From NCBI RefSeq assembly GCF_003018255.1, contig NZ_CP027440.1: a stretch of DNA of 64,000 nt. One strand, written 5' to 3'. Of this stretch, positions 8,921 through 24,237 are shown in pieces. The DNA is from Escherichia coli. GTDB lineage: Bacteria > Pseudomonadota > Gammaproteobacteria > Enterobacterales > Enterobacteriaceae. The position numbers and the translations under genes were made by a program. Position 1 is the first letter of the stretch; the number at the start of each line of letters is the position of its first letter. The notes under the pieces were generated by a model. That model made no database searches. It was not told the DNA's origin and saw only the letters and a program-made list of their open reading frames with translations.

Positions 8921-10186
8921 ATGCTCACGAAAAAGAAATGGGCGTTATTTAGTCTATTAACATTGTGTGGCGGTACAATTTATAAATTACCGTCTCTGAA
9001 AGATGCGTTTTATATCCCGATGCAGGAATATTTCCATTTGACCAATGGTCAAATTGGTAATGCTATGTCGGTAAACTCATTTGTCACCACAGTGGGCTTT
9101 TTTCTGTCTATTTATTTTGCCGATAAACTACCGCGCAGATACACCATGTCATTCTCACTCATTGCGACAGGATTACTGGGTGTTTATTTGACGACAATGC
9201 CGGGGTATTGGGGCATCCTCTTTGTCTGGGCGCTATTTGGCGTTACTTGCGACATGATGAACTGGCCGGTCTTGCTCAAGTCGGTAAGTCGATTGGGCAA
9301 TAGCGAACAACAAGGTCGGTTGTTTGGCTTCTTCGAAACAGGGCGTGGCATTGTCGATACCGTGGTGGCATTTTCTGCGTTGGCAGTATTTACCTGGTTT
9401 GGCAGTGGCTTATTGGGTTTTAAAGCAGGCATCTGGTTCTATTCCCTTATTGTGATTGCCGTAGGCATTATCATTTTCTTTGTCCTGAATGACAAAGAAG
9501 AGGCACCGTCCGTTGAGGTGAAAAAAGAAGACGGAGCATCGCAAAACACCAGTATGACCTCGGTGCTGAGAGATAAAACCATCTGGCTTATCGCTTTCAA
9601 CGTCTTCTTCGTTTACGCGGTTTACTGTGGCCTAACATTCTTCATTCCATTCCTGAAAAACATCTATCTATTGCCCGTTGCTCTGGTGGGGGCTTACGGC
9701 ATCATTAACCAATACTGTCTGAAAATGATTGGAGGACCGATTGGTGGCATGATTTCAGATAAGATCCTGAAATCGCCGAGTAAATATCTATGCTACACCT
9801 TTATCATAAGTACCGCTGCGCTCGTACTGTTGATTATGCTGCCGCACGAAAGTATGCCGGTCTATTTAGGGATGGCATGTACGCTGGGCTTTGGCGCTAT
9901 AGTCTTCACACAGCGAGCCGTATTTTTTGCACCTATCGGCGAAGCAAAAATTGCTGAAAATAAAACAGGCGCGGCGATGGCGTTGGGTAGCTTTATTGGT
10001 TACGCCCCGGCGATGTTCTGCTTCAGTCTGTATGGCTACATTCTGGATTTAAATCCGGGGATTATTGGCTACAAAATCGTGTTTGGCATTATGGCCTGCT
10101 TCGCATTCTGTGGTGCGGTGGTTTCCGTAATGCTGGTTAAGCGTATTAGCCAACGTAAGAAAGAGATGCTGGCGGCTGAAGCTTAA
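8921..10186 (+). CDS. yihN: MFS transporter, 421 aa
   Basis: Polytopic membrane protein; position and length match K-12 YihN. Confidence 0.85.
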   Translation: MLTKKKWALFSLLTLCGGTIYKLPSLKDAFYIPMQEYFHLTNGQIGNAMSVNSFVTTVGFFLSIYFADKLPRRYTMSFSLIATGLLGVYLTTMPGYWGILFVWALFGVTCDMMNWPVLLKSVSRLGNSEQQGRLFGFFETGRGIVDTVVAFSALAVFTWFGSGLLGFKAGIWFYSLIVIAVGIIIFFVLNDKEEAPSVEVKKEDGASQNTSMTSVLRDKTIWLIAFNVFFVYAVYCGLTFFIPFLKNIYLLPVALVGAYGIINQYCLKMIGGPIGGMISDKILKSPSKYLCYTFIISTAALVLLIMLPHESMPVYLGMACTLGFGAIVFTQRAVFFAPIGEAKIAENKTGAAMALGSFIGYAPAMFCFSLYGYILDLNPGIIGYKIVFGIMACFAFCGAVVSVMLVKRISQRKKEMLAAEA

Positions 10187-10245
10187 TTAGTGGCCGGATG
10201 TGCTTAATCCGGCCAACGAAAACCGTATCAACCGAAGTTTCAATT

Positions 10246-11034
10246 TCAGGATACTTCTTGCTCGGCAACCACCAGTTCAACATTCTCTTCACTTAACAAC
10301 TGGCAGAAAGAATTGGGAGGCGGGGCATCAGTAAAAAAAGCCCTGACATTCCGTGCATTGCCAATTGAAACGGCAGCAGACGCGGTAAACTTCGTATGAT
10401 CGGCCACTAACAATGTATTCCGCGCATGTTTAATCATCGTTCTCGCGACTAACGCTTCATTGACATCAAATTCCAGTAGGGTGCCGTCATGTTCAATGGC
10501 ACCTATACTGGTGATTAAATAATCTGCGCGGAAGCCTTCAATAAAATCCACGGCTCCTGGGCCGATAATCCCACCGTTATGAGCGCGTAAAGTGCCTCCC
10601 GGCACCATCACTTCAATATCCTGATTCTTATAAAGAATCTGTGCCACACGCAGGCTATTAGTGATAATGCGTAAATCACGCCGGTTGAGTAATGCCCTGG
10701 CAACGGCTTCTACGGTTGTACCGATGGTGATAAAGACGGTACAGCGTTCGGGAAGGTAATCGGCGACTGCCTCAGCGATCGCCCGTTTCTCGGCGGTGAG
10801 CGAAAGTTCCCGTTGCTCAAAAGCGGTATTCATGACGCTGGAGACGCGCCCGGCCCCTCCATGATGACGGGTGATCAAGCCCTGCTCACTGAGTTTTCGG
10901 ATATCCCGGCGCACGGTTTGCGTTGAAACATCCAGCAGTTGTGCCAGTTCTTCAATATTCATATAACCGCGTTCTGCGATTAGATGAACGAGTTGGTCAT
11001 GGCGTGGATTACCTGTCACTTCGATGATACTCAT
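10246..11034 (-). CDS. DeoR-family transcriptional regulator (YihW/CsqR-like), 262 aa
   Basis: N-terminal HTH (IEELAQLLDVSTQTVRRDIRKL) and DeoR C-terminal sugar-phosphate-binding domain; ATG read at 11032-11034 with upstream RBS. Confidence 0.8.
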   Translation of the reverse strand: MSIIEVTGNPRHDQLVHLIAERGYMNIEELAQLLDVSTQTVRRDIRKLSEQGLITRHHGGAGRVSSVMNTAFEQRELSLTAEKRAIAEAVADYLPERCTVFITIGTTVEAVARALLNRRDLRIITNSLRVAQILYKNQDIEVMVPGGTLRAHNGGIIGPGAVDFIEGFRADYLITSIGAIEHDGTLLEFDVNEALVARTMIKHARNTLLVADHTKFTASAAVSIGNARNVRAFFTDAPPPNSFCQLLSEENVELVVAEQEVS

Positions 11035-11073
11035 GAATACTCCCTTGCCCCTCCTCGGTAGATGTTTACCATT

Positions 11074-11970
11074 TTACGCATAAAGTGACAAAAATGATTC
11101 GGTTTGCTCACGATTAGGAATGCCGGCCCGACCGCCAGGCTGGGTACATTTCATCGCGGCAACCGCACTGGCAAAACGAATAGCCTCTTTTGTTGGCATT
11201 TTTTCTGCCAACGCTACCGCGAGTGCGCCGTGAAAAACATCGCCTGCTCCAGTGGTATCAACCACATTGACAGAAAATGCCTCCTGTTGACACAAATGAC
11301 CATCTTCAATCCACAACGATCCTTCAGAACCCAGCGTAACATACACTTTACCTGCTGTTTGTGTCGTTGCCTGGAACAAACCTTCTTCAGGTGACTGCAG
11401 GCCAGTCATGCGTTTCAGCCCAGGTGTTGAGAACACGGCGTGATCGGCAAGCGCGACAAGTGGAGAAATATCCTGCGGTGTCATATCGGCGTCTAAAAGC
11501 GTTGTCACACCCGCAAGGCGCGCTAGCGAGAATGCTTTTTCAGTACCGCTATGCCAGCGAACATCGGCCAGAATCAGATCATAACGAGAGAAATCGATCG
11601 CTTCTAACCATTCGGCATCAGTACCGAGATCAGGACTTGGATAATTAACGATAATCCGTTCGCCATGCTGATCAACGAGGATCGCTGATTGCGACGAACG
11701 GGCGTTAGGATATCGGCGGCAAAATGCGGTATTGACGCCCCAACCCTCAAGTTCTGCAAGTAAGGTATTTCCACAACTGTCATCGCCGACGCGACCGATG
11801 AAATCAACCTCCACGCCAAGCTTTGCGATTGCAACAGCGGCTGTTGCTGCCGGGCCGCCACCAATCTCAAGATAATGATTTGCCTGATATTTCCCGCCGC
11901 CCTCCGGCAGAGTGGGCAAAGAATAAATCCTGTCCTGAACTGTGATACCCACGCATGCAATTCTGGTCAT
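11074..11970 (-). CDS. PfkB-family sugar kinase (YihV / 6-deoxy-6-sulfofructose kinase-like), about 298 aa
   Basis: ORF 11074..12021; start placed at internal ATG ([13 protein letters not shown]...); PfkB signature [18 protein letters not shown]. Confidence 0.8.
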
Positions 11971-12142
11971 ATTTGTCTTGTCCTGTTTAATTTTGTCGTC
12001 TTTGGTCAATTTAAATGACACAAATGATCAAATTAGTGATGCGTGTCGTGTTTTTGAACATAAATTACAAATATGCTCAAAAACAGACGAAAACGAATTT
12101 TCAATTGTCATTATTTTGTCAATGTCAGACAGGAGAGTATTC
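11971..12142. promoter_or_regulatory. Divergent intergenic control region between the kinase/regulator and reductase/aldolase operons, with TTGTCA direct repeats
   Basis: AT-rich 172-bp region; TTGTCA read at 12105-12110 and 12116-12121 (11-bp spacing), tgtcag at 12123-12128; RBS aggagag at 12131-12137. Confidence 0.4.
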
Positions 12143-13021
12143 ATGGCAACCATTGCATTTCTCGGGCTGGGGCAGATGGGTAGCCCAATGGCTAACAATC
12201 TATTGCAAAAAGGGCATTCATTGCAGGTATTTGATGTCAATGCACAGGCCGTCGATGTGCTAGTTACGCAGGGGGCCACTGCGGCACAAACCCCAGCGGA
12301 AGCAGCAGCAGGCGCTGAATTTATCATCACTATGCTTCCCAATGGTGACATTGTTCGACAGGTTCTGTTGGGGGAAAAAGGCGTCTGTGAGGCTGTTTCA
12401 TCTGACGCGTTATTGATTGATATGTCGACTATTCATCCCTTACAGACCGATGCATTAATACGGGAGTTACAAGAAAAAGGCATCAGTATGATGGACGCTC
12501 CCGTGGGCAGAACGTCCGTGAATGCGATTGATGGCACATTGCTGATTTTAGCGGGTGGCACTGATGAGCAGATTGCACGTGCACGCCCGATTCTCATGTG
12601 CATGGGTAATGAACTGGTCGAGGCTGGCGGCCCAGGAATGGGGATCCGCGTGAAGCTAATTAACAACTATATGAGCATTGCGCTTAATGCGCTGTCCTCC
12701 GAGGCCGCTGTGTTATGTGAGTCACTGGGATTAAATCTTGATGTCGCAATTAAGGTGATGAGTGGTACGGCAGCAGGGAAAGGACATTTTACGACCACCT
12801 GGCCTGGCAAAGTGCTGAAAGGCGATCTTTCACCCGCCTTCATGGTGGATCTGGCGTTGAAAGATCTGCGTATTGCAGTTGACGTCGCTCGGGAGACGGG
12901 GGCACCGCTCAATATGGGGATTGCAGCAGAAAGTTATTACGCCGCAGCAAGTCAAGACGGCAAAGGGCGGCAGGATTGGAGTGCCCTGCTAAATCAGGTT
13001 CGCCAGCAGGCTGGTCTTTAA
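12143..13021 (+). CDS. NAD(P)-dependent HIBADH-family reductase (YihU / 3-sulfolactaldehyde reductase-like), about 292 aa
   Basis: ORF 11942..13021; start placed at ATG 12143 ([20 protein letters not shown], Rossmann GxGxxG). Confidence 0.8.
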
Positions 13022-13045
13022 TTTTATCTATTAACAGGAGTTTCT

Positions 13046-13933
13046 ATGTCATCCCACTTCACCCCATTTACGCTGAAAGATATCTCCCGCCCAGGTGGTG
13101 GATTCGCCATGTTAGCTGTCGATCAGCGTGAGGCCATGCGCCTGATGTTTGCGGCAGCAGGGCAGCCAAAACCCATCGCCGACAGTGTACTCACCGATTT
13201 TAAAGTTGCCGCGACCCGAATCCTTTCTCCTTATGCTTCTGCCGTTCTGGCGGATAAACAATTTTGTCTTGAACAAATAGTCGAGCAGGGCGCTGTGGCT
13301 AATTCTTGCGGCCTGATTGTCGCTGCCGATCTTTTTATCCCAGGTAATGGCATCCCGGTTGATAGCGTTGAAATAGATATGTCCGTCGACCCGCATAAAG
13401 CCCGTGAAATGGGGGCTAAGGCAATGAAATTACTTGTACTCTGGCGTGAAGATGAACCCGCAGAGGAACGTCTGGCAATGGTTGATAAATTTGTTCGTCG
13501 CTGCCGTAGTGCCGGGCTGGTTAGCATTATTGAACCTGTGGTGCGTCCACCTCGTCGCGGTTGGGACTTTGATCGTGAAAGCGCCATTGTTGCCGCCGCC
13601 GCAGAGCTTGGTGGAACAGAGGCTGATCTTTACAAAGCCGAGATGCCATTAGGGGGCAAAGGCGATGAAAAAACCTTACTTGCCGCCTGTCAGCAACTTA
13701 ACGATCAGATGAAGATGCCGTGGGTAATTCTTTCTTCTGGCGTTGATGCCGATATTTTTGGCCGTGCAGTAAGTATTGCCATGAAAGGTGGTGCGTCGGG
13801 CTTCCTGGCTGGACGAGCGGTATGGGCGTCGGTTGTTGGTGCACAAGATCCACAAACCATGCTGCGCGATGTCTCCGTTCCACGCTTGCAACGGCTGGCT
13901 GAAATTGTCGATGAAGGTATCGCGCAACGCTAA
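13046..13933 (+). CDS. Class I aldolase of the LacD/DeoC family (YihT / sulfofructose-phosphate aldolase-like), 295 aa
   Basis: ORF-track peptide [29 protein letters not shown]...; family assignment from recollection. Confidence 0.7.
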
Positions 13934-13965
13934 TCCCCTATGGATATCGATTCTGGAGAATAACA

Positions 13966-14976
13966 ATGGATAAAATTACCCAGGTTTTATTTTCAGATAT
14001 TGGGAAAGTCACCACTCAATATGTTGAAGTACCACACCAGCAACTTAAACCGCACGAAGTACGGATTGCGCCCGTGTTCTACGGGATATGCGGTTCGGAT
14101 CTGCATGTTCTGAAAGGCGGTCATCCGTTTGCCAAGCCGCCTGTCGTCCCCGGTCATGAAATTGCAGCGCGCGTTACGGAAGTGGGCAGCGACGTTAAAA
14201 ATGTACAGCCGGGCGATCATGTTGTGGTCGATCCCATCATGGCTTGCATGGAATGCCGAGCCTGCAAAGCAGGACGTTTTAATCTTTGTGAACCACCGCA
14301 GGTTGCTGGTTTTCGCGCACCGGGCTTTGCTCGCTCACAACACATTGTTCCTGCGCGTAATTGCCATGTCGCACCAGCCTCTTTACCGCTAAAAGTGTTG
14401 GCCTTTGCCGAACCGGCGGCTTGTGCTCGTCACTGCGTTAACCGAATGCCGAAAGCTTCTCTGGAAAGCGTACTGGTGATTGGTGCCGGAACGATAGGCT
14501 TATCCATCGTGCAGGCACTGCGCATTATGGGGGCAGGTAAGATTACCGTGATTGAACCTGACGCTGCCAAACGCGCGCTGGCGTTAAAGCTGGGCGCAGC
14601 AGAAGTTTGGGCACCAGGTGAGCTGGCCGCAGATGTGAGATTTACGGGGGCGATTGATGTCGTTGCAGCGCAGGCCACGCTTAACGATGCATGTACCCGT
14701 GTATATGCCGGAGGCACCGTCGTGTGCATGGGCGTACCAAGTGGGCCGCGTGAAATACCATTACCGATGATGCAACGTTTCGAGCGTGACTTGCTCAACT
14801 CTGGCATGTACATCCCTGAAGATTTCGATGCTGTTATCGAATGGCTGGCGGATGGGCGGTTTGATACCAGTGAACTGGTTACCGATTTATTTGCCATTGA
14901 GGATGCAGCGGCGGCATTCGAACGCGCGCAGCAAAATGACTCCATAAAGGTCATGCTGCAATTTGCGCCGGAATGA
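13966..14976 (+). CDS. Zn-dependent medium-chain alcohol/polyol dehydrogenase (sorbitol/galactitol-1-phosphate dehydrogenase-like), 336 aa
   Basis: Catalytic-zinc motif CGSDLH...GHE, structural-zinc cysteines CMECRACKAGRFNLC, NAD-binding VIGAGTIGL. Confidence 0.8.
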   Translation: MDKITQVLFSDIGKVTTQYVEVPHQQLKPHEVRIAPVFYGICGSDLHVLKGGHPFAKPPVVPGHEIAARVTEVGSDVKNVQPGDHVVVDPIMACMECRACKAGRFNLCEPPQVAGFRAPGFARSQHIVPARNCHVAPASLPLKVLAFAEPAACARHCVNRMPKASLESVLVIGAGTIGLSIVQALRIMGAGKITVIEPDAAKRALALKLGAAEVWAPGELAADVRFTGAIDVVAAQATLNDACTRVYAGGTVVCMGVPSGPREIPLPMMQRFERDLLNSGMYIPEDFDAVIEWLADGRFDTSELVTDLFAIEDAAAAFERAQQNDSIKVMLQFAPE

Positions 14977-15045
14977 TTTTCTAAATCTCTGTCTGGCGCT
15001 GCGTCACGTCAGCGCCACCCTACAACAATTAAAAAGGACACTGCG

Positions 15046-16479
15046 ATGAGTCAAATCACCAGTCCTGCAACTTATTCAATTAGTCGGCCACAGGACGTAA
15101 TTGATATTGTTAATAAGAACTCTGCAATCAACACCAGTATCGGCGTTATTTTTATTGCTTTGGGCGGCATATTGATTGATGCCTACCAGGTGGCGATGGT
15201 GGGGTTTGGTAATAAATACATTGCCGCTCAATTCGGCATTTCTCCGGGTCTTGCTGCGACCGTCAATGCGTCAGTATTAATCGCCGCGTTAATTGGCGGT
15301 TTATTAGCGAACCGAGTAATAAACCGCTTTGGGCAAAAGCGGGCATTTATTATTGGCATGGGGCTGTGCACCATCGGTGCTGCAGCGGTAGCTATTGCTC
15401 CCAGTATCTGGTGGGTGCTGGTGTGCCGCGTCATCATGGGCTTTGGTTTAGGCATCGACTTCCCTTTGGCAACTAATGCCGTGGCAGAGCTTCGTGGTTC
15501 AACGTCGAAGAAAACCGGAACGTCGGTCAACCTCTGGCAAATGGCCTGGTATGTTTCGACAACCGTTGTTTATTTGGTGCTTTTGCCGCTGCTTCTGTCG
15601 GGTATCGCTGAAGAACAATTGTGGCGTTACGGAATATTCATCGGAGCTATTTTTGCAGTCATCTTCATGATTTTGCGTTACTTCTTTATTGGTGAATCCG
15701 CAATGTGGGCCGCACGCGTTGGGCGTTACCAGGAAGCGTGCGACATTCTGGGAAAACGTTATGGTGTTCAGGCTCGCGTTGCGGCATCGGGTACAACAGA
15801 AGCGAAATTCTCGGAAAAAGCAGAGAATAAATACAGTGGTGGATATGGCATCTTATTTAATGATCGTTACCGCAAACGCACCATTCTTGGCTGTGTCGTG
15901 GCAACCATGCAGGCGTGGCAATATAACGCCGTAGGTGTTTATCTTCCTCTTACGTTGGCGGGAATAATAAGTGGCGGGCTTACTGGCGCGTTGACCGGTT
16001 CTGCCGTCGTGAATGCCCTTTGTGGGGTGACAGGTGGGATGATCGGCTCGTTTATTCTCCAACGACTGGGTACTCGCCGACAGTCGATGTATGGATTTGC
16101 TGTTGTGACCTTAGCATTGCTGTCGTTAGGCGCACTGGCAACGACTAATCCTTGGCTGTCTTTAGGGTTATTGGGATCAATTATTTTCTTCCATTCAGCG
16201 GGTCCTGGTGGGCTGGGCATGACCATTGCCACACTCTCTTATCCTCCCGCTATTCGCCCTACTGGGGTCGGATTTGCCCGCGCTATTATGCGCACAGGGG
16301 CAATTGCAGGACTCATTTTCTGGCCGATGCTGTGGGGTGCGTTGAAAACTGAAGCGTTTTACTGGTTGGCAATCGTGCCATTCCTGGGATTCCTAACCTG
16401 TGTATTGATTAATTGGGAACCACTGGGTGCAAATGTTGATGCTGAGGACGCAGAGGTTCTGGCTGAATTGAAGAAATAA
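15046..16479 (+). CDS. MFS transporter, 477 aa
   Basis: Multiple hydrophobic segments; MFS motif A (GGLLANRVINRFGQKRAF). Confidence 0.8.
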   Translation: MSQITSPATYSISRPQDVIDIVNKNSAINTSIGVIFIALGGILIDAYQVAMVGFGNKYIAAQFGISPGLAATVNASVLIAALIGGLLANRVINRFGQKRAFIIGMGLCTIGAAAVAIAPSIWWVLVCRVIMGFGLGIDFPLATNAVAELRGSTSKKTGTSVNLWQMAWYVSTTVVYLVLLPLLLSGIAEEQLWRYGIFIGAIFAVIFMILRYFFIGESAMWAARVGRYQEACDILGKRYGVQARVAASGTTEAKFSEKAENKYSGGYGILFNDRYRKRTILGCVVATMQAWQYNAVGVYLPLTLAGIISGGLTGALTGSAVVNALCGVTGGMIGSFILQRLGTRRQSMYGFAVVTLALLSLGALATTNPWLSLGLLGSIIFFHSAGPGGLGMTIATLSYPPAIRPTGVGFARAIMRTGAIAGLIFWPMLWGALKTEAFYWLAIVPFLGFLTCVLINWEPLGANVDAEDAEVLAELKK

Positions 16480-16577
16480 TTTAATGCGCATCGGCTTAAG
16501 CCGATGCGCATTAATTCAAACTGCCCACGTTTAGTGGTTCGTATCCCAGATTTCTCGCCTACCAGGAGAGGAAAATT

Positions 16578-17927
16578 ATGTCTGAAAAGTTACCCGCACC
16601 GCGTGAAGGGCTTTCCGGTAAAGCCATGAGACGTGTCGTTATGGGCAGTTTCGCAGGCGCGTTAATGGAATGGTATGACTTCTTTATTTTTGGCACGGCA
16701 GCAGGACTGGTATTTGCACCGCTGTTTTATCCAGACAGCGATCCTTTTATAGGTCTTATAGCTTCCTTTGCGACCTTTGGTGTCGGTTTTCTGACTCGTC
16801 CTTTAGGGGGCATCGTCTTTGGTCATTTTGGCGATAAAATCGGGCGAAAAATAACACTTATCTGGACGCTGGCTATTGTCGGTTGCTCCACATTTTTGAT
16901 TGGTTTTATTCCGACGTATCAGGAAATTGGCATTTGGGCACCGCTTGTATTAATGGTGCTGCGTTTGATTCAGGGCTTTGGTCTTGGTGGCGAGTACGGT
17001 GGAGCGGCATTGATGACCATAGAATCAGCGCCCGAATCCCGACGCGGATTTTTAGGTTCACTCCCGCAAACGGCTGCGTCTGTGGGTATTATGCTGGCAA
17101 CCGGTATTTTTGCTCTCTGTAACCATTTTCTTACTTCGGAGCAGTTTCTCTCCTGGGGATGGCGCATTCCGTTTTGGCTTTCTGCGGTGATGTTGATCGT
17201 TGGGCTGTTTATCCGCCTACATACCGAAGAAACGCTGGATTTTCAAAAGCAAAAAACGACGAATAATAAAGAAAAGTCCGTTCCTCCGTTGATTGAATTA
17301 TTCAAAAAACATCCACGAAATATTTTATTGGCACTGGGTGCGAGGCTGGCGGAAAGTGTCTCCTCTAATATTATTAATGCCTTTGGTATTGTCTATATTT
17401 CCAGCCAATTAGCATTGTCGCGAGATATTCCCCTGACGGGTATGTTGATTGCCTCGGCGATCGGTATTTTCAGTTGTCCATTGGTTGGATGGTTATCAGA
17501 TCGTATAGGTCAAAAAAGTCTGTATTTGTCGGGAGCAGGATTTTGTGTCCTGTTCGCGTTTCCTTTCTTCTTATTATTGGATAGCAAAAGTACGCTCATC
17601 ATCTGGTGCAGTATGATCCTCGGCTACAACTTAGGTCCGACGATGATGTTTGCCGTGCAGCCAACACTTTTCACCCGCATGTTCGGTACCAAAGTACGAT
17701 ATACCGGCCTTTCTTTTGCTTATCAATTTTCCGCGATTCTTGGCGGACTAAGCCCCCTTATCGCCTCAAGTTTGCTGGCGCTAGGGGGAGGAAAACCGTG
17801 GTATGTCGCTCTGTTTTTATTTGCTGTCTCAGTTCTTTCCTTTGTTTGCGTCTGGCTGATTGAGCCGACCGATGAACAAGAAACCGCTTCTTACCGCTAC
17901 ATCAGGGAACAATCTCATGAAAACTGA
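16578..17927 (+). CDS. MFS transporter of the metabolite:H+ symporter type (ProP/KgtP/ShiA-like), 449 aa
   Basis: Characteristic N-terminus EWYDFFIFG and GHFGDKIGRK loop motif. Confidence 0.75.
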   Translation: MSEKLPAPREGLSGKAMRRVVMGSFAGALMEWYDFFIFGTAAGLVFAPLFYPDSDPFIGLIASFATFGVGFLTRPLGGIVFGHFGDKIGRKITLIWTLAIVGCSTFLIGFIPTYQEIGIWAPLVLMVLRLIQGFGLGGEYGGAALMTIESAPESRRGFLGSLPQTAASVGIMLATGIFALCNHFLTSEQFLSWGWRIPFWLSAVMLIVGLFIRLHTEETLDFQKQKTTNNKEKSVPPLIELFKKHPRNILLALGARLAESVSSNIINAFGIVYISSQLALSRDIPLTGMLIASAIGIFSCPLVGWLSDRIGQKSLYLSGAGFCVLFAFPFFLLLDSKSTLIIWCSMILGYNLGPTMMFAVQPTLFTRMFGTKVRYTGLSFAYQFSAILGGLSPLIASSLLALGGGKPWYVALFLFAVSVLSFVCVWLIEPTDEQETASYRYIREQSHEN

Positions 17928-18804
17928 ACGAAAAAACGAGCATTACCTGGCGCTACAACAGGCGTTTGACGCGCCATGGCCTGGGCCTGTAGGAGAGTTA
18001 GTGATGCTGGAAAAAGGCAATATTCACCTGCAGATTTATCCGCATGATGGTGCCAGGATAACCTCGTTAAAGGCATTTGGTTCTGAAGTATTACGCCAAT
18101 GGCAGCCGCAGCGCAGAGCTTTTCAGTATGGCTGTTTCCCAATGGTGCCGTGGGCAGGGCGACTGGGGAATGCGACGCTGAATGCTGGTGGGCAATGTTA
18201 TTCTTTACCCGCCAATAAACCACCACATGCGTTGCATGGTATGGCTTGTTACTCAACGTGGGAAATCATCGACAAAACAGCAGATTCCCTGACTTTACGT
18301 ATGCCCCTGGCTTCACCGTGGCCCTGGCAAGGGGAAGTGATTCAGACTTTTTTGCTGGAGAACGATGCGCTGGTTTTGCAACTGGAAGTCCATTCATATG
18401 CCGATACATTCCCGGCCTCCGCAGGCTGGCATCCGTGGTTTGCGAAAAAGCTGACTCCGCAAAATACAGAATCGTTGCAGGTGCTTTTTGATGCGGACTG
18501 GCAAGAAGAAGCGGGTAGTGATGAACTGCCAACTGGAAATCGTATCTCTCCTCAAGTCGGTCCCTGGGATGACTGTTTTGGTTTTTATGACGGGGTGAAG
18601 GTTAAGTTACTGTGGCCTGGTAAACTCGCGATGACCATGACCTCTTCTGCAAACAGTCTGGTGGTATTTGATAAACAGCCCGATGCCACCTGTATTAACC
18701 CGCTGACTCAGGCACCTAACGCAATAAATCTAACGCCGGAATTTGTGACACCAGATAAGCCGCTGGTCATCGAAACTCGTTGGCAATTTACACCTGAATC
18801 TTAA
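17872..18804 (+). CDS. Aldose 1-epimerase (mutarotase)-like protein (YihR-like), about 310 aa; alternative ATG at 17917
   Basis: ORF 17860..18804 begins at a TTG; ATG codons at 17872 and 17917; start overlaps the end of the upstream transporter gene. Confidence 0.65.
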   Translation: MNKKPLLTATSGNNLMKTERKNEHYLALQQAFDAPWPGPVGELVMLEKGNIHLQIYPHDGARITSLKAFGSEVLRQWQPQRRAFQYGCFPMVPWAGRLGNATLNAGGQCYSLPANKPPHALHGMACYSTWEIIDKTADSLTLRMPLASPWPWQGEVIQTFLLENDALVLQLEVHSYADTFPASAGWHPWFAKKLTPQNTESLQVLFDADWQEEAGSDELPTGNRISPQVGPWDDCFGFYDGVKVKLLWPGKLAMTMTSSANSLVVFDKQPDATCINPLTQAPNAINLTPEFVTPDKPLVIETRWQFTPES

Positions 18805-18944
18805 CCATTCATCTATTGCGAAAAAGACAGTGAAATTACTCTGCTTTTTCGCAATCAGCATCACAAGATTACCCTTATTGCCACATAGCCAAACCCATCC
18901 TTTCCCGCTACAGTTAATTTCTTGTGGCGCGAAAGGAGGCAAAA

Positions 18945-19544
18945 ATGCTCTATATCTTTGATTTAGGTAATGTGATTGTCGATATCGACTTTAACCGTGT
19001 GCTGGGGGCCTGGAGCGATTTAACGCGTGTTCCACTGGCTACGCTTAAGAAGAGTTTCCACATGGGCGAGGCGTTTCATCAGCATGAGCGTGGGGAAATT
19101 AGCGACGAAGCGTTCGCAGAGGCGCTGTGTCATGAGATGGCCCTGCCGCTAAGCTACGAGCAGTTCTCTCACGGCTGGCAGGCGGTGTTTGTCGCGCTGC
19201 GCCCGGAAGTGATCGCCATCATGCATAAACTGCGTGAGCAGGGGCATCGCGTGGTGGTGCTTTCCAATACCAACCGCCTGCATACCACCTTCTGGCCGGA
19301 AGAATATCCGGAAATTCGTGATGCTGCTGACCATATCTATCTGTCGCAAGATCTGGGGATGCGCAAACCCGAAGCACGAATTTACCAGCATGTTTTGCAG
19401 GCGGAAGGTTTTTCACCAGACGATACGGTCTTTTTCGACGATAACGCCGATAATATAGAAGGAGCTAATCGGCTAGGCATTACTAGTATTCTGGTGAAAG
19501 ATAAAACCACCATCCCGGACTATTTCGCGAAGGTGTTATGCTAA
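18945..19544 (+). CDS. yihX: HAD-family alpha-D-glucose-1-phosphate phosphatase, 199 aa
   Basis: ORF 18924..19544; start at internal Met ([17 protein letters not shown]...), HAD motif I. Confidence 0.9.
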
Positions 19545-20410
19545 AAACCATTCAGGACAAAGCCAGGCATCGTACCCGTCCACTATGGGCCTGGCTAAAA
19601 CTACTCTGGCAACGCATTGATGAGGACAACATGACAACCCTGGCAGGTAACCTTGCCTATGTGTCGTTGCTCTCATTAGTGCCGCTGGTTGCCGTTGTTT
19701 TTGCGCTTTTCGCCGCTTTTCCCATGTTTTCCGACGTCAGCATTCAGTTGCGTCACTTTATTTTTGCCAACTTTCTGCCTGCTACTGGCGATGTTATTCA
19801 GCGGTATATCGAACAATTTGTTGCCAATTCCAACAAGATGACCGCCGTTGGGGCGTGTGGGCTGATCGTCACAGCATTATTGCTGATGTACTCCATCGAT
19901 AGCGCGTTGAATACCATCTGGCGCAGCAAACGAGCGCGACCAAAAATTTACTCGTTTGCCGTGTACTGGATGATTTTAACGCTGGGGCCGCTGCTGGCAG
20001 GGGCCAGTCTGGCGATCAGTTCCTATCTGCTCTCCCTGCGCTGGGCGAGCGATCTCAATACTGTCATCGACAACGTGCTGCGTATTTTTCCGCTGCTGTT
20101 GTCGTGGATCTCCTTCTGGTTGCTGTACAGCATTGTTCCTACCATCCGCGTACCTAACCGCGACGCGATTGTCGGCGCGTTTGTCGCCGCACTCCTGTTC
20201 GAAGCAGGAAAGAAAGGTTTCGCGCTTTATATCACCATGTTCCCGTCATATCAGCTCATTTACGGCGTGCTGGCGGTGATCCCCATTCTCTTTGTCTGGG
20301 TCTACTGGACATGGTGTATCGTCTTGCTTGGCGCGGAAATTACTGTCACTCTCGGGGAATACCGCAAATTAAAACAAGCTGCTGAACAAGAAGAAGACGA
20401 CGAACCATGA
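19538..20410 (+). CDS. yihY: Inner-membrane protein YihY (formerly called RNase BN, rbn), 290 aa
   Basis: ORF-track peptide [21 protein letters not shown]...; overlaps yihX by 7 nt. Confidence 0.9.
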
Positions 20411-20844
20411 TTGCATTAATTCAACGCGTAACCCGTGCCAGCGTCACCGTGGAGGGAGAAGTGACGGGCGAAATTGGCGCGGGACTTTTGGTGTTATTGG
20501 GTGTCGAAAAGGATGACGACGAACAGAAAGCAAACCGTCTGTGCGAGCGTGTGCTCGGCTACCGCATCTTTAGCGATGCCGAAGGCAAGATGAATCTCAA
20601 CGTGCAACAGGCGGGCGGCAGTGTACTGGTGGTTTCCCAGTTTACCCTTGCCGCAGATACCGAACGGGGGATGCGTCCAAGTTTCTCCAAAGGTGCATCA
20701 CCGGATCGCGCAGAGGCGTTATATGACTATTTCGTCGAACGCTGCCGTCAGCAAGAGATGAACACGCAAACAGGACGCTTCGCTGCGGATATGCAGGTAT
20801 CGCTGGTCAATGATGGCCCCGTGACATTCTGGTTGCAGGTATGA
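20407..20844 (+). CDS. dtd: D-aminoacyl-tRNA deacylase, 145 aa
   Basis: ORF-track peptide [19 protein letters not shown]...; 4-nt overlap with yihY. Confidence 0.93.
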
Positions 20845-21830
20845 GCCAGCTTCCAGGGTTGTCACGGGAAACAAGAGAGAGTATCGCTATGTATCACCTT
20901 CGGGTTCCACAAACAGAAGAAGAATTAGAGCGTTACTATCAGTTTCGCTGGGAAATGTTGCGTAAGCCCCTGCATCAACCGAAAGGTTCGGAACGCGACG
21001 CGTGGGATGCGATGGCGCATCACCAGATGGTCGTCGACGAGCAGGGTAATCTGGTGGCGGTAGGCCGACTGTATATTAATGCCGACAATGAAGCGTCCAT
21101 TCGCTTTATGGCCGTTCATCCCGACGTGCAGGACAAAGGGTTAGGAACGCTGATGGCGATGACCCTCGAATCTGTGGCGCGTCAGGAAGGTGTTAAGCGC
21201 GTGACCTGTAGCGCCCGCGAAGACGCGGTGGAGTTTTTCGCCAAGCTGGGGTTTGTTAATCAGGGAGAAATCACCACGCCAACCACCACGCCGATTCGCC
21301 ATTTTTTGATGATTAAACCCGTTGCCACTCTGGATGATATTTTGCATCGCGGCGACTGGTGCGCGCAGCTGCAACAGGCGTGGTATGAACACATCCCGCT
21401 GAGTGAAAAAATGGGCGTGCGCATTCAGCAATATACCGGGCAAAAATTTATCACCACCATGCCGGAAACAGGCAATCAGAATCCGCATCACACGCTGTTT
21501 GCCGGGAGTTTATTCTCGCTGGCAACGCTCACCGGTTGGGGGCTTATCTGGCTGATGCTGCGCGAACGCCACCTCGGCGGAACGATTATTCTGGCGGATG
21601 CGCATATCCGCTACAGCAAGCCGATTAGCGGCAAACCTCATGCGGTAGCCGACCTTGGTGCCTTAAGCGGCGATCTCGACCGTCTGGCGCGCGGACGAAA
21701 AGCACGGGTGCAGATGCAAGTAGAAATCTTTGGCGACGAGACGCCGGGTGCAGTGTTTGAAGGCACGTATATCGTTCTGCCCGCGAAGCCATTTGGCCCG
21801 TATGAAGAGGGCGGGAACGAAGAAGAGTAG
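20841..21830 (+). CDS. yiiD: GNAT acetyltransferase / thioesterase-domain protein YiiD (FabY), 329 aa
   Basis: ORF-track peptide; 4-nt overlap with dtd. Confidence 0.88.
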
Positions 21831-21847
21831 GGGCGTTTTACTTGACT

Positions 21848-21876
21848 GAAAAGGTTTTCAATCTGAAAACCTTTTC
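21848..21876. terminator. Bidirectional hairpin terminator between yiiD and the esterase gene (gaaaaggttttcaatctgaaaaccttttc)
   Basis: Inverted repeat read directly between the two convergent stops. Confidence 0.6.
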
Positions 21877-21893
21877 TGGGCCCTGGTCCGGAG

Positions 21894-22877
21894 TTACCTT
21901 CCCGCTCTCCAGGCAACATCCCGTAGCGCCGATCGCGCAGCCTCGCTGATACCACCTAACTGAAAAAATCCGTGGATAACGCCAAGGTAGCGTTGGCAGG
22001 TGCATTGCACTCCTTGCCCTGTCATGCGGTGATACAACGCTTCACCTTCATCGCAAAGTGGGTCGTATTCAGCGGTAATGATATGTACAGGTGGCAAGCC
22101 ATTGAAATCATCGCGCCAAAGAGGGCTGGCTTCAGGATGCCTGCGTTCAATGCCTGGCAGGTACATCTCAAAGCCGCTCAGTAAAGTGTCGCGTGTGATG
22201 ATGTAATCGTGACCATTGCGTATGTAGCTTTCGAAATGCGCAGTCGCATCAAGCATGGGATAAATTAAGATGAGTTGTGCTGGTTGCCACTCGCCAGCAC
22301 GCTTCAATCGCAAAGCAGTTACCAGCGCCAGATGCCCTCCCGCACTGTCACCGGCAAGAGTTATTCGTTGTTTATCAACGCCGAGTCGTTCGGCGTGTTG
22401 CCGGACTAATTCTGCACCTCGTTGTGCATCATCATGGGCGGCGGGGAAAGTATGTTCCGGTGCCAGCCGATACTGGACGGCAATAATCCGACATTGCCCG
22501 TAATAGGCTAACTGGCGCAGCTGGTTGTCGTGAGTTGCGAACCCGCCGCTAACAAAACAGCCACCGTAGTAATAAATTATCGTCGGGAGTAATGTCGGGG
22601 CATTCAGCGGTGACACTATTCGTAAGGTCATCCCTTCAAGTTCGATAGTCTGAATATCTACCCGCGTTTCTGTCTCACCCGCAAGGACAGCGCTGGCGAT
22701 ATAGCCCTCTCTGCGCTGCGTAATACTTTGTTGGCGCGATGAGGGGCGACCCGCAGCGATAAACTCTTCGACTAACTCTGCAATTCCTTTTTCCAGTGCC
22801 ATAGTAGAACTCATTTTGCTGTATGAATGTACAGTTTTATACACCCGTTTTTGCTGGATGGATACAGGGAAATTCAC
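21894..22877 (-). CDS. Alpha/beta-hydrolase, hormone-sensitive-lipase (Aes-like) family carboxylesterase, up to 327 aa
   Basis: GDSAGG nucleophile-elbow motif; ORF starts at a GTG (22877), first in-frame ATG at about 22814. Confidence 0.75.
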   Translation of the reverse strand: MNFPVSIQQKRVYKTVHSYSKMSSTMALEKGIAELVEEFIAAGRPSSRQQSITQRREGYIASAVLAGETETRVDIQTIELEGMTLRIVSPLNAPTLLPTIIYYYGGCFVSGGFATHDNQLRQLAYYGQCRIIAVQYRLAPEHTFPAAHDDAQRGAELVRQHAERLGVDKQRITLAGDSAGGHLALVTALRLKRAGEWQPAQLILIYPMLDATAHFESYIRNGHDYIITRDTLLSGFEMYLPGIERRHPEASPLWRDDFNGLPPVHIITAEYDPLCDEGEALYHRMTGQGVQCTCQRYLGVIHGFFQLGGISEAARSALRDVAWRAGR

Positions 22878-22976
22878 GGGCGTGAAAAATCTGGAAAGCG
22901 CCTCGCAAATGTAAAGACAAACCCGGCAGAGACGTGGTTTTGCTGGAGCACTATCAGTAAGCTAGTGGTTTCAAGG

Positions 22977-22993
22977 GTACGTCAATGACGTAC
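22977..22993. promoter_or_regulatory. Perfect 17-bp palindrome (gtacgtcaatgacgtac) upstream of the toxin-antitoxin pair; candidate operator
   Basis: Read directly; lies between the divergent esterase gene and the toxin gene, upstream of a TATAAT at 23024-23029. Confidence 0.4.
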
Positions 22994-23030
22994 AAAAAGG
23001 ATTGTTACTCTAAGCCAATGGCGTATAATT

Positions 23031-23342
23031 ATGCTCTTCATCGAAACGGAAATTTTTACTGAAGATGTTCAAAAACTGCTGACCGACGATGAATTCAGTC
23101 GTTTTCAGTTTTTCCTGGCCTTGAATCCTGACTATGGTGAGGTAATACCTGAAACTGGTGGGTTAAGAAAGGTTCGATGGGTGTCAGGAGGAAAGGGGAA
23201 ACGTGCTGGTGTCAGGGTTATTTACTTTCATCAGGTTAAACATTATGAGATCAGATTACTGCTTATTTATCGTAAGGGTATTAAAGATGATCTGTCTCCC
23301 CAGGAAAAAGCAATGCTCCGGTTGTTAAATACGAGGTGGTAA
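23031..23342 (+). CDS. RelE/ParE-superfamily (HigB-like) type II toxin, 103 aa
   Basis: Small basic protein (MLFIETEIFTEDVQKLL...) immediately followed, with no gap, by an XRE-family HTH gene. Confidence 0.6.
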   Translation: MLFIETEIFTEDVQKLLTDDEFSRFQFFLALNPDYGEVIPETGGLRKVRWVSGGKGKRAGVRVIYFHQVKHYEIRLLLIYRKGIKDDLSPQEKAMLRLLNTRW

Positions 23343-23633
23343 ATGGATAAGGCACTTTTTGAGCGGTTGACTCACAGCATGGCCCAGATGAATGAAATTA
23401 TTGAAGGAACGCGACAGCCTTCGCGGACTTTTGAAGTTGATGCTATGAAAATCAAAGAAATACGCCGCGCTTCAGGGTTGTCACAATCTAAATTTGCCGA
23501 TCTTATTTCTGTAAGCGTAGACACGTTGCGTAACTGGGAGCAGGGGCGACGTTCACCGACCGGGCCTGCAAAGGCTTTGCTGCGAGCGATTGCCAATGAT
23601 CCGCAACATGTGCTGCAAGCACTTAACCGTTAG
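23343..23633 (+). CDS. XRE-family HTH antitoxin (HigA-like), 96 aa
   Basis: HTH (IRRASGLSQSKFADLISVSVDTLRNWEQG); start codon abuts the toxin stop (tggTAAATGg). Confidence 0.6.
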   Translation: MDKALFERLTHSMAQMNEIIEGTRQPSRTFEVDAMKIKEIRRASGLSQSKFADLISVSVDTLRNWEQGRRSPTGPAKALLRAIANDPQHVLQALNR

Positions 23634-24237
23634 AGGCATGGTTATGCCATACAGAAAGCACCAGCATTCAGAACTCCTGTGAAAGCGGCGTAGTGCCACC
23701 TGCTCAGGAGTTTTGCTATGACCCGTAATCGTGCTGACCGTTGCCACCCTATGATGCGATTAAAAAAACTCATCGTCGCGCCGATGATTGACGTCAATGC
23801 TATCGGATGATACCGGGGGTGTTCCGGAAGGAATTCCTTGTTTCCCGAACTGTTACCAACAAAATTATAACGATAAGCAAGTAAAGACCGGTTGGTGGCA
23901 GTACTGACCGGTCTGTGATGGATGATTAATTTCACCTTAAATCCTGGTGCTGTTAGGATGCTGACATTTTTCGGCTACACCATTCAGATTATGCAAATAA
24001 AGATCCAATCAAAAGATAAATATCCCTGAATATAATATATTTATAGCACCCATATCTCATCCTGGGCGATAACCCAACCATTTTTGATTAACAAATGAAA
24101 CAACTGCAACGTTCTTATTATTTCTGGAAAACGTCTCGCAAAAACAAAACAGCATGCAAAAATCCGCTTTTTTTAAATGATTTTTCGGCGTAATTTTCGC
24201 ACATACATTAATGAGTAATATATGTAAGGTATTGGTA

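Follow-up and report, generated by a model that had tools for sequence, protein, structure and literature searches.

The subject of this analysis is a pair of consecutive transporter genes of the major facilitator superfamily (MFS), referred to as MFS1 and MFS2, in a 64,000-nucleotide stretch of Escherichia coli DNA (contig NZ_CP027440.1, assembly GCF_003018255.1), the whole of which is called the window. The window belongs to the E. coli chromosome and covers the yih locus, and its positions 10000-22000 are up to 99.7% identical to complete E. coli genomes. The RefSeq gene order in a 99.7% identical genome is yihL, yihM, yihN, a DeoR regulator and a sugar kinase (both on the minus strand), yihU (plus strand), an aldolase, a zinc-dependent alcohol dehydrogenase, two MFS transporters, an aldose 1-epimerase, yihX, yihY, dtd and fabY. 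Eight of these genes, encoding the DeoR regulator, the kinase, a sulfolactaldehyde (SLA) reductase, the aldolase, the zinc-dependent alcohol dehydrogenase (Zn-ADH), MFS1, MFS2 and an epimerase-like protein, form a self-contained cassette, which holds the yih locus instead of yihO-yihS in about a quarter of E. coli genomes. The MFS1-MFS2 pair itself was found in 1342 of 5426 complete E. coli genomes, about a quarter of them, nearly always annotated as two MFS transporter genes, and the full-length matches in the sampled rows (1328 genomes) were 98-99.9% identical. The window is devoid of ompL, yihQ and yihS, and the Zn-ADH and a distant epimerase are encoded there instead. No gene for an isomerase converting sulfoquinovose (SQ) to sulfofructose (SF), whether of the YihS (PF07221) or the SqvD type, was found within 10246-18804, where the Zn-ADH gene takes that position.

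MFS1 (15046-16479, plus strand, ATG start, 477 residues) is a 12-helix MFS protein of an organosulfonate-associated family and the predicted exporter of 2,3-dihydroxypropane-1-sulfonate (DHPS), and MFS2 (16578-17927, plus strand, ATG start, 449 residues) is a 12-helix MFS protein of the metabolite:H+ symporter (MHS) type and the predicted proton-coupled importer of a C6 sulfosugar. Both open reading frames (ORFs) lie where the initial annotation of this DNA had placed two consecutive MFS transporters of different types, and that description holds, as the family matches of the two proteins differ and their best BLASTP segment was 28% identical over 134 residues, aligning the N-terminal half of one with the C-terminal half of the other. 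Because there is no full-length similarity between them, the two genes are not a tandem duplication. The two motifs quoted in the same annotation for the second transporter are present, E31-W-Y-D-F-F-I-F-G39 in transmembrane helix 1 (TM1) and G82-H-F-G-D-K-I-G-R-K91 in the TM2-TM3 loop, and both are invariant in 14 orthologs. MFS2 aligned over its full length to the MHS model TIGR00883 (residues 27-421 on profile positions 1-399 of 400) with 406.8 bits against a curated cut-off of 443.45, and scored 409.7 bits against a cut-off of 538 on the ShiA equivalog model; several MFS2 orthologs are named 'MHS family MFS transporter' in RefSeq. On this placement MFS2 is predicted to be an MHS-type (TC 2.A.1.6) transporter operating by proton-coupled uptake. 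The characterised members of TC 2.A.1.6 are proton-coupled uptake symporters.

The best NCBIfam match of MFS1 was weak (106.5 bits on the aromatic acid:H+ symporter model, cut-off 418.55), and on the sugar porter model TIGR00879 the protein failed with 69.6 bits against a cut-off of 237.8. The Pfam Sugar_tr model (PF00083) matched both MFS1 (104 bits) and MFS2, and the sugar-porter signature that had been ascribed to the first transporter therefore does not set it apart; by these scores MFS1 is judged not to be a sugar porter, and classification by hidden Markov models did not place both proteins in one sugar-porter subfamily. AlphaFold models computed from ortholog alignments displayed 12 transmembrane helices in a 6+6 arrangement for each protein (pLDDT 84.9 for MFS1 and 87.6 for MFS2), in agreement with the MFS topology. 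Fold searches of the PDB with both models returned generic MFS proteins only (GLUTs, PfHT1, PiPT, SV2A, OAT1) at 13-21% identity and did not separate the families; those of MFS1, at 15-19% identity, comprised sugar porters as well as SV2A, OAT1 and PiPT, a phosphate transporter. Searching solved structures by sequence with MFS1 and MFS2 was no more informative on family.

The two transporter genes are separated by a spacer of 98 nucleotides, in which a perfect 34-nucleotide palindrome with a 15-bp stem (16481-16514) begins 1 nucleotide past the MFS1 stop codon. Folded as RNA, the palindrome has a free energy of -25.9 kcal/mol (z = -6.5). The window contains it once, with no U-run after it on the plus strand. 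Stem-loops of different sequence are found at the equivalent place in other Enterobacterales, some of them followed by a T-run. The palindrome may serve as an intra-operon attenuator or as an mRNA-stability element between the yihU-aldolase-ADH-MFS1 and the MFS2-epimerase segments. An Rfam scan of 9900-19200 identified no RNA family, and a consensus promoter scan of the window region gave a result below chance expectation. At the downstream end of the pair, the MFS2 stop codon (17925-17927) lies beyond the annotated ATG of the epimerase gene (17917), giving an 11-nucleotide overlap and confirming that the end of the second transporter gene overlaps the mutarotase start. The sequence AGGGA lies about 10 nucleotides upstream of the ATG at 17917, and the longest epimerase ORF, starting with the TTG at 17860, would extend the overlap to 68 nucleotides. 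MFS2 and epimerase genes also overlap in Atlantibacter hermannii, by 17 nucleotides. Translational coupling of the two genes is plausible, judging from the 11-nucleotide overlap.

Upstream of the transporter pair, the cassette encodes a regulator and three enzymes resembling those of the sulfoglycolytic route of Embden-Meyerhof-Parnas type (sulfo-EMP) in E. coli K-12. The DeoR-family, YihW/CsqR-like regulator (10246-11034, minus strand; DeoR/GlpR regulator in RefSeq) is 71% identical to K-12 CsqR. The PfkB kinase of the YihV type, a predicted SF kinase (11074-11970, minus strand), is 67% identical to K-12 YihV and retains the sulfonate triad K27/N109/R138 and the catalytic D244. The YihU-type SLA reductase (12143-13021, plus strand) is 73% identical to K-12 YihU, passed the NCBIfam equivalog NF012005 (580 bits, cut-off 348) and retains N174 and S178, and the class I, YihT-type aldolase, a predicted sulfofructose-1-phosphate (SFP) aldolase (13046-13933, plus strand), is 67% identical to K-12 YihT and retains K193, S226, S227, R253 and A26. 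The definitions of the sulfonate-binding and catalytic residues of the kinase, aldolase and reductase were taken from published work (PMC8006165). The SF kinase triad, the K193 and R253 of SFP aldolase and the SLA reductase are thus all found in the proteins of the window, and the sulfoglycolysis-like setting with a C3 sulfonate product that the initial annotation had drawn by analogy is upheld by enzymes 67-73% identical to YihV, YihT and YihU. The longest ORF at the reductase gene (11942-13021, GTG start, 359 residues) reaches back across the divergent kinase gene's 5' end; both the annotation of yihU and the homology begin with the ATG at 12143. The 172 nucleotides at 11971-12142 correspond to the divergent yihU/yihV control region used for published electrophoretic mobility shift assays.

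The Zn-ADH (13966-14976, plus strand) occupies the position of the K-12 SQ isomerase gene yihS and belongs to the polyol-dehydrogenase subgroup of zinc-dependent dehydrogenases, its best NCBIfam and PDB matches being YdjJ, RspB, ketose reductase, threonine dehydrogenase and sorbitol dehydrogenase. Direct reading of its sequence revealed the catalytic Cys/His/Glu ligands, the four structural Cys residues and an NAD-type fingerprint. Zn-ADH orthologs of at least 55% identity were seen solely at cassette-carrying loci, and the gene accompanies the kinase, aldolase and MFS2 genes even in divergent variants of the cassette; because of this restriction and this company, the Zn-ADH looks like the entry enzyme of the cassette. 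The (S)-DHPS 2-dehydrogenase DsHpsP is a member of the same superfamily of zinc-dependent medium-chain dehydrogenases, and an HpsP-type function was considered for the Zn-ADH and rejected as the main reading, as the gene persists in variants devoid of the reductase and its match to DsHpsP (8WWD, 108 bits) was no better than those to other polyol dehydrogenases. The last gene of the cassette encodes an aldose-1-epimerase-family protein (17917-18804, plus strand) that is 27% identical to YihR and has 3nre as its best PDB match. In E. coli its motif C-I-N-P-L near the C terminus has Asn where aldose 1-epimerases have their catalytic Glu, within what is the VEP motif in YihR. Of 31 cassette epimerases, 19 have Asn there (Escherichia, Citrobacter, Vibrio, Sutterella, Succinivibrionaceae) and 12 have Glu, and the two His motifs are kept. 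In the hosts with Asn the protein may not be a conventional mutarotase.

Related loci outside E. coli were gathered from the genomic contexts of MFS1 orthologs, a scan of a genome collection and labelling of ORFs, and are numbered here with the prefix L. MFS1 orthologs of 60-92% identity were found across distant phyla, and about 35 loci carry the DeoR regulator, kinase, aldolase, Zn-ADH, MFS1, reductase, MFS2 and epimerase. The hosts include enterobacteria (Escherichia, Citrobacter, Atlantibacter, Erwinia, Mixta, Pantoea, Leminorella, Budvicia), alphaproteobacteria (Rhodopseudomonas, Rhodovastum, Roseospira, Pleomorphomonas) and Actinomycetota (Streptomyces, Schaalia, Propionibacteriaceae), together with Vibrio, Succinivibrionaceae, Sutterella and Propionivibrio. 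Throughout these loci the Zn-ADH, MFS1, MFS2 and epimerase are orthologous (45-95% identity), whereas the kinase, aldolase and reductase are exchanged between lineages. The kinase is either of the YihV type or of a second PfkB type (Kin2) about 31% identical to it, the reductase is either of the YihU type or of a second type (Red2) about 29% identical to it, and the aldolase is either of class I, in which case it too is orthologous across phyla, or of class II, as in Vibrio, Leminorella, Budvicia and part of the Citrobacter loci. A comparable interchange of enzymes has already been described for sulfo-EMP hybrid clusters. The cassette is therefore read from this gene content as complete and conserved across phyla and not as a truncated yih operon. 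Two versions occur in the single genome of Citrobacter sp. NCU1 (L027, L035), one with the kinase and class II aldolase genes downstream of the epimerase gene and the other in a Vibrio-like arrangement. The cassette of Atlantibacter hermannii (L077, L078) lies between bipA/typA and yihX, with yihL, yihM and yihN absent, and in two Citrobacter loci (L011, L013) the epimerase gene is immediately followed by yihX; the cassette may be long established at the locus and not a recent replacement. Past fabY in the window, at approximately 21894-23700 and before yiiE, an alpha/beta hydrolase gene (minus strand), a hypothetical gene and nadS fill an interval that is without annotated genes in K-12.

The case for MFS2 as the importer comes from its persistence and its company. 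MFS2 was present in every cassette variant with sequence available, including those that are without MFS1, reductase and epimerase, namely a locus of Acidiphilium (L061), a Prauserella-like contig (L075) and the Streptomyces rapamycinicus group (L076), where it is 56-59% identical to the window protein. Homologs of MFS2 were also found in Deefgea piscis (60%) and Azospirillum thermophilum (56%), in clusters encoding an IlvD/Edd dehydratase, an HpaI-type aldolase, a mutarotase, an SGL-type lactonase, a beta-hydroxyacid dehydrogenase, a short-chain dehydrogenase/reductase (SDR) and TauE. The SDR matched the sulfoquinovose 1-dehydrogenase of P. putida (9gwu) with 304 bits, the next PDB match scoring 208 bits, and retains the sulfonate-binding residues Arg152 and Arg154, which identifies these clusters as sulfoglycolytic Entner-Doudoroff (sulfo-ED) clusters for SQ. 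The TauE family is generally regarded as one of sulfonate/sulfite exporters. With TauE as the usual exporter there, MFS2 is therefore the sole candidate importer in the sulfo-ED clusters. In a neighbour-joining tree the Deefgea and Azospirillum homologs branched within the cassette-linked MFS2 clade, and since the epimerase and reductase of the cassette share just 24-34% identity with their sulfo-ED counterparts, MFS2 alone is common to both at the level of orthologs. These neighbourhoods point to MFS2 as, most likely, an importer of a sulfosugar.

For MFS1, homologs of 33-44% identity were found inside clusters of C3-sulfonate genes (L051, L061, L069, L040, L054, L055 and similar loci). In Bacillaceae and Actinomycetota (L051, L069) they lie between aldehyde dehydrogenase and beta-hydroxyacid dehydrogenase genes, in clusters that also encode UxaA-type (SuyAB-like) proteins, a 2-hydroxyacid dehydrogenase, a protein of the YeiH sulfate-exporter family and an Ldh_2 dehydrogenase whose best model is L-sulfolactate dehydrogenase. 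In Acidiphilium (L061) the MFS1 homolog precedes HisD-like (HpsN-type) and SDR genes and adjoins a SuyB-like gene. The second-type reductase of the Streptomyces cassette is 60% identical to the dehydrogenase of the DHPS clusters, and the pair of MFS1 plus dehydrogenase is thus common to the cassette and the DHPS clusters. In L076 TauE and an aldehyde dehydrogenase stand in place of MFS1 and the SLA reductase. A classical sulfo-EMP cluster of Gilliamella (YihQ, YihS, YihT, YihU, YihV, CsqR) carries a 51% identical MFS1 homolog together with one transporter of the glycoside-pentoside-hexuronide (GPH) family. The metabolite common to all these contexts is most simply DHPS, or more broadly a C3 sulfonate, and MFS1 is most likely, as its neighbours suggest, a DHPS exporter. 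In the described hpsRNOUPsuyAB cluster, which these neighbourhoods resemble, HpsU is the MFS uptake system for DHPS; a Cupriavidus plasmid match examined as a link to HpsU did not lie in an hps cluster (one record, unannotated). A 37% identical MFS1-like protein is encoded on a plasmid of Pantoea soli (NZ_CP032703.1, 12284-13705; L070) among genes for SsuD, other LLM-class flavin monooxygenases and sulfonate-binding proteins, and about 65 other Pantoea plasmids carry a similar one, so that the family also travels with genes of sulfonate-sulfur assimilation.

Taken together, MFS1 and MFS2 probably constitute the transport arm of a sulfoglycolysis-type cassette, with MFS2 importing the sulfosugar and MFS1 releasing DHPS. 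In such a pathway MFS2, as an MHS-type proton symporter, would take up an anionic C6 sulfosugar, either SQ or a close derivative, and the Zn-ADH, with or without the epimerase-like protein, would convert it to a sulfofructose-type ketose. The ketose would then be phosphorylated and cleaved to dihydroxyacetone phosphate and SLA, the reductase would turn SLA into DHPS, and MFS1, whose MFS family is found in the company of C3-sulfonate genes, would let DHPS out. Three readings of the entry reaction were considered, and the assignment of the transporter roles is independent of which of them holds. The substrate could be SQ, with the Zn-ADH and an epimerase-like helper replacing the isomerase by novel chemistry, and this reading is favoured because MFS2 sits in SQ sulfo-ED clusters and E. 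coli Nissle 1917 grows on SQ. We know of no chemistry by which a single Zn-ADH turns SQ into SF. The substrate could also be a reduced sulfosugar, for example 6-deoxy-6-sulfo-glucitol, oxidised by the polyol dehydrogenase to SF, which would leave the cassette internally redox-balanced; a literature search for natural sulfonated hexitols (sulfoquinovitol and similar) found none. Alternatively, SF could be imported directly, with the Zn-ADH in a side role. In its broader form the proposal would be a third, isomerase-free sulfo-EMP variant spread across phyla, in which an MHS protein imports SQ or a modified sulfosugar, a Zn-ADH replaces the isomerase and a new MFS family exports DHPS; this generalisation is put forward tentatively, as one that could well be wrong, and the sugar imported would be SQ or else a sulfosugar that is reduced, or modified in another way, and has yet to be found in nature.

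The arrangement was compared with the transport systems it most resembles. The K-12 proteins YihO and YihP, the putative SQ importer and the putative DHPS exporter, share the locus, the logic of import plus export and partner enzymes 67-73% identical to those of the cassette; however, both belong to the GPH family and are paralogs of each other, whereas MFS1 and MFS2 represent two other, mutually unrelated MFS families. MFS2 shares with the MHS proteins ShiA, KgtP and ProP the EWYDF motif of TM1, the GxxGDxxGRK loop, alignment over the full length and 12 helices, but scores under the curated cut-offs and is partnered with sulfosugar genes and not with shikimate or dicarboxylate genes. The likeness of MFS1 to HpsU of Cupriavidus pinatubonensis JMP134 is one of context, as MFS1 relatives occur in clusters with HpsN-, HpsO/P-, SuyAB- and sulfolactate-dehydrogenase-like genes; HpsU takes up DHPS, whereas MFS1 in the cassette is predicted to export it. 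TauE/SafE (TSUP) stands in for MFS1 in L076 and is found alongside MFS2-type importers in sulfo-ED clusters, but is of an unrelated family with a different fold. The cassette itself corresponds to the 'short cassette (yihTUVW)' reported in 2025 for Nissle 1917 and many pathogenic strains (PMC12608037), with which the window shares the locus, the inverted orientation and the approximately 72% identity between YihW and CsqR (72% for Nissle YihW against K-12 CsqR). That study treats the cassette as truncated, whereas the cassette of the window has eight genes, and neither the article nor its supplement mentions the Zn-ADH, the two MFS genes or the epimerase gene. It reports that Nissle 1917 grows on SQ about as well as K-12, that YihW leaves DNA upon addition of SQ and that no yihS homolog exists elsewhere in the short-cassette strains.

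Several observations weigh against the proposed transport arm. The directions assigned to the two transporters are deduced from gene neighbourhoods alone; MFS2 scores slightly under the curated MHS cut-off; and, as the cassette encodes no SQ isomerase, the substrate of MFS2 is uncertain. The relatives of MFS1 in catabolic clusters would be expected to import, so that an export role requires the reversed direction, and in Gilliamella the GPH protein is equally near to YihO (48%) and YihP (47%), which favours neither role for the MFS1 homolog there. Most loci were retrieved through MFS1, and its frequency in cassettes is therefore biased, and the kinases and reductases of non-gammaproteobacterial cassettes are without the sulfonate residues of YihV and YihU. 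Moreover, neither RNA-seq nor quantitative reverse-transcription PCR detected induction of yihT, yihU, yihV or yihW by SQ in Nissle, and the authors concluded that SQ degradation no longer involves the cassette (PMC12608037).

Import by both transporters, MFS2 of one sulfosugar and MFS1 of a second sulfonate (for example what the Zn-ADH acts on, or a C3 sulfonate), with the product leaving by an unlinked route, would suit the MFS1 relatives in DHPS/sulfolactate clusters and beside ssuD-type genes on Pantoea plasmids, which are most simply importers, as well as the conserved adjacency of the Zn-ADH and MFS1 genes and the stable hairpin that parts the transcription segments of MFS1 and MFS2. We nevertheless regard it as unlikely, because the cassette makes DHPS through the SLA reductase and an exporter is needed, and because the exchange of MFS1 and reductase for TauE and aldehyde dehydrogenase fits a role on the product side. 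To our knowledge, no catabolism of DHPS exists in E. coli. The K-12 candidates for the unlinked route, YihO and YihP, are absent from short-cassette strains (PMC12608037). The orientation given in the initial annotation, in which MFS1 imports a sugar and MFS2 exports or takes up an acidic C3 product (DHPS or sulfolactate), appears unlikely as well: its idea of a pair combining substrate import with C3 export is supported, but the roles are most likely reversed, with import falling to MFS2 and export to MFS1. The sugar-porter-like fold of MFS1, its Sugar_tr match and its gene lying directly behind that of the Zn-ADH speak for the earlier orientation, as do the organic acids that make up most MHS substrates, the position of MFS2 behind the reductase gene in non-enteric cassettes and the 40% identical MHS-type paralogs near DHPS-type clusters in Prauserella. 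However, MFS2 persists where reductase and MFS1 are both missing (L061, L075, L076), co-occurs with TauE in sulfo-ED clusters, which leaves it the import role, and belongs to a group whose characterised members are uptake symporters, while the relatives of MFS1 are embedded in C3-sulfonate catabolic clusters and the protein itself fails the sugar-porter model.

Two further explanations would remove the sulfonate pathway altogether. The E. coli ydj cluster has a proposed logic of dehydrogenase, kinase and aldolase. By analogy, the cassette might in most hosts degrade a non-sulfonated polyol or acid sugar, with both MFS proteins importing such compounds, and the resemblance of the Zn-ADH to polyol and aldonate dehydrogenases (YdjJ, IdnD, RspB), the Kin2 and Red2 types without the sulfonate residues of YihV and YihU, the best scores of Red2 on tartronate-semialdehyde and 3-hydroxyisobutyrate dehydrogenase models and the lack of SQ induction in Nissle are all consistent with this. 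It is nonetheless judged very unlikely, given that the kinase and reductase of the E. coli and Vibrio versions are YihV and YihU orthologs whose sulfonate pockets are complete, that Red2 shares 60% identity with the dehydrogenase found in clusters with SuyAB and that both transporter clades recur in sulfonate clusters with an SQ dehydrogenase ortholog, TauE or SuyAB. Finally, the genes could be decaying remnants of a truncated yih cassette with no current function, in keeping with the unchanged expression of yihT, yihU, yihV and yihW on SQ and the weaker DNA binding by Nissle YihW, which binds weakly at 37 °C (PMC12608037), and with the Asn in place of the catalytic Glu in the E. coli epimerase-like protein. 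Decay of this kind seems highly improbable for genes of which the two encoding MFS proteins are full-length and 98-99.9% identical in nearly all sampled rows of 1328 genomes, and of which all eight retain synteny and sequence (45-95% identity) from phylum to phylum; Nissle, in addition, grows on SQ, and constitutive expression would also give no differential expression.

The import of sulfosugars and the export of DHPS and sulfolactate have been described as poorly characterised (PMC8873060). In the literature searched, which excluded most subscription journals, no MHS-type sulfosugar importer, no MFS1 family and no Zn-ADH version of sulfo-EMP was found described, and both genes are annotated merely as 'MFS transporter'; given this coverage, an earlier description may exist. 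Two candidate transporter families, both new and opposite in role, emerge from the locus, and thanks to the co-variation across many genomes their assignments can be tested directly. The 2025 work that called the cassette truncated and non-functional is also to be read differently, since the cassette is complete and conserved across phyla. If the proposed conversion of SQ or a related sulfosugar to DHPS is true, it would expose an entry reaction not known so far, with a Zn-ADH standing for the isomerase, and the carriers of the cassette, among them gut-adapted and extraintestinal pathogenic E. coli (ExPEC) and the strains Nissle 1917 and CFT073, would represent an added source of DHPS for sulfide-producing gut bacteria.

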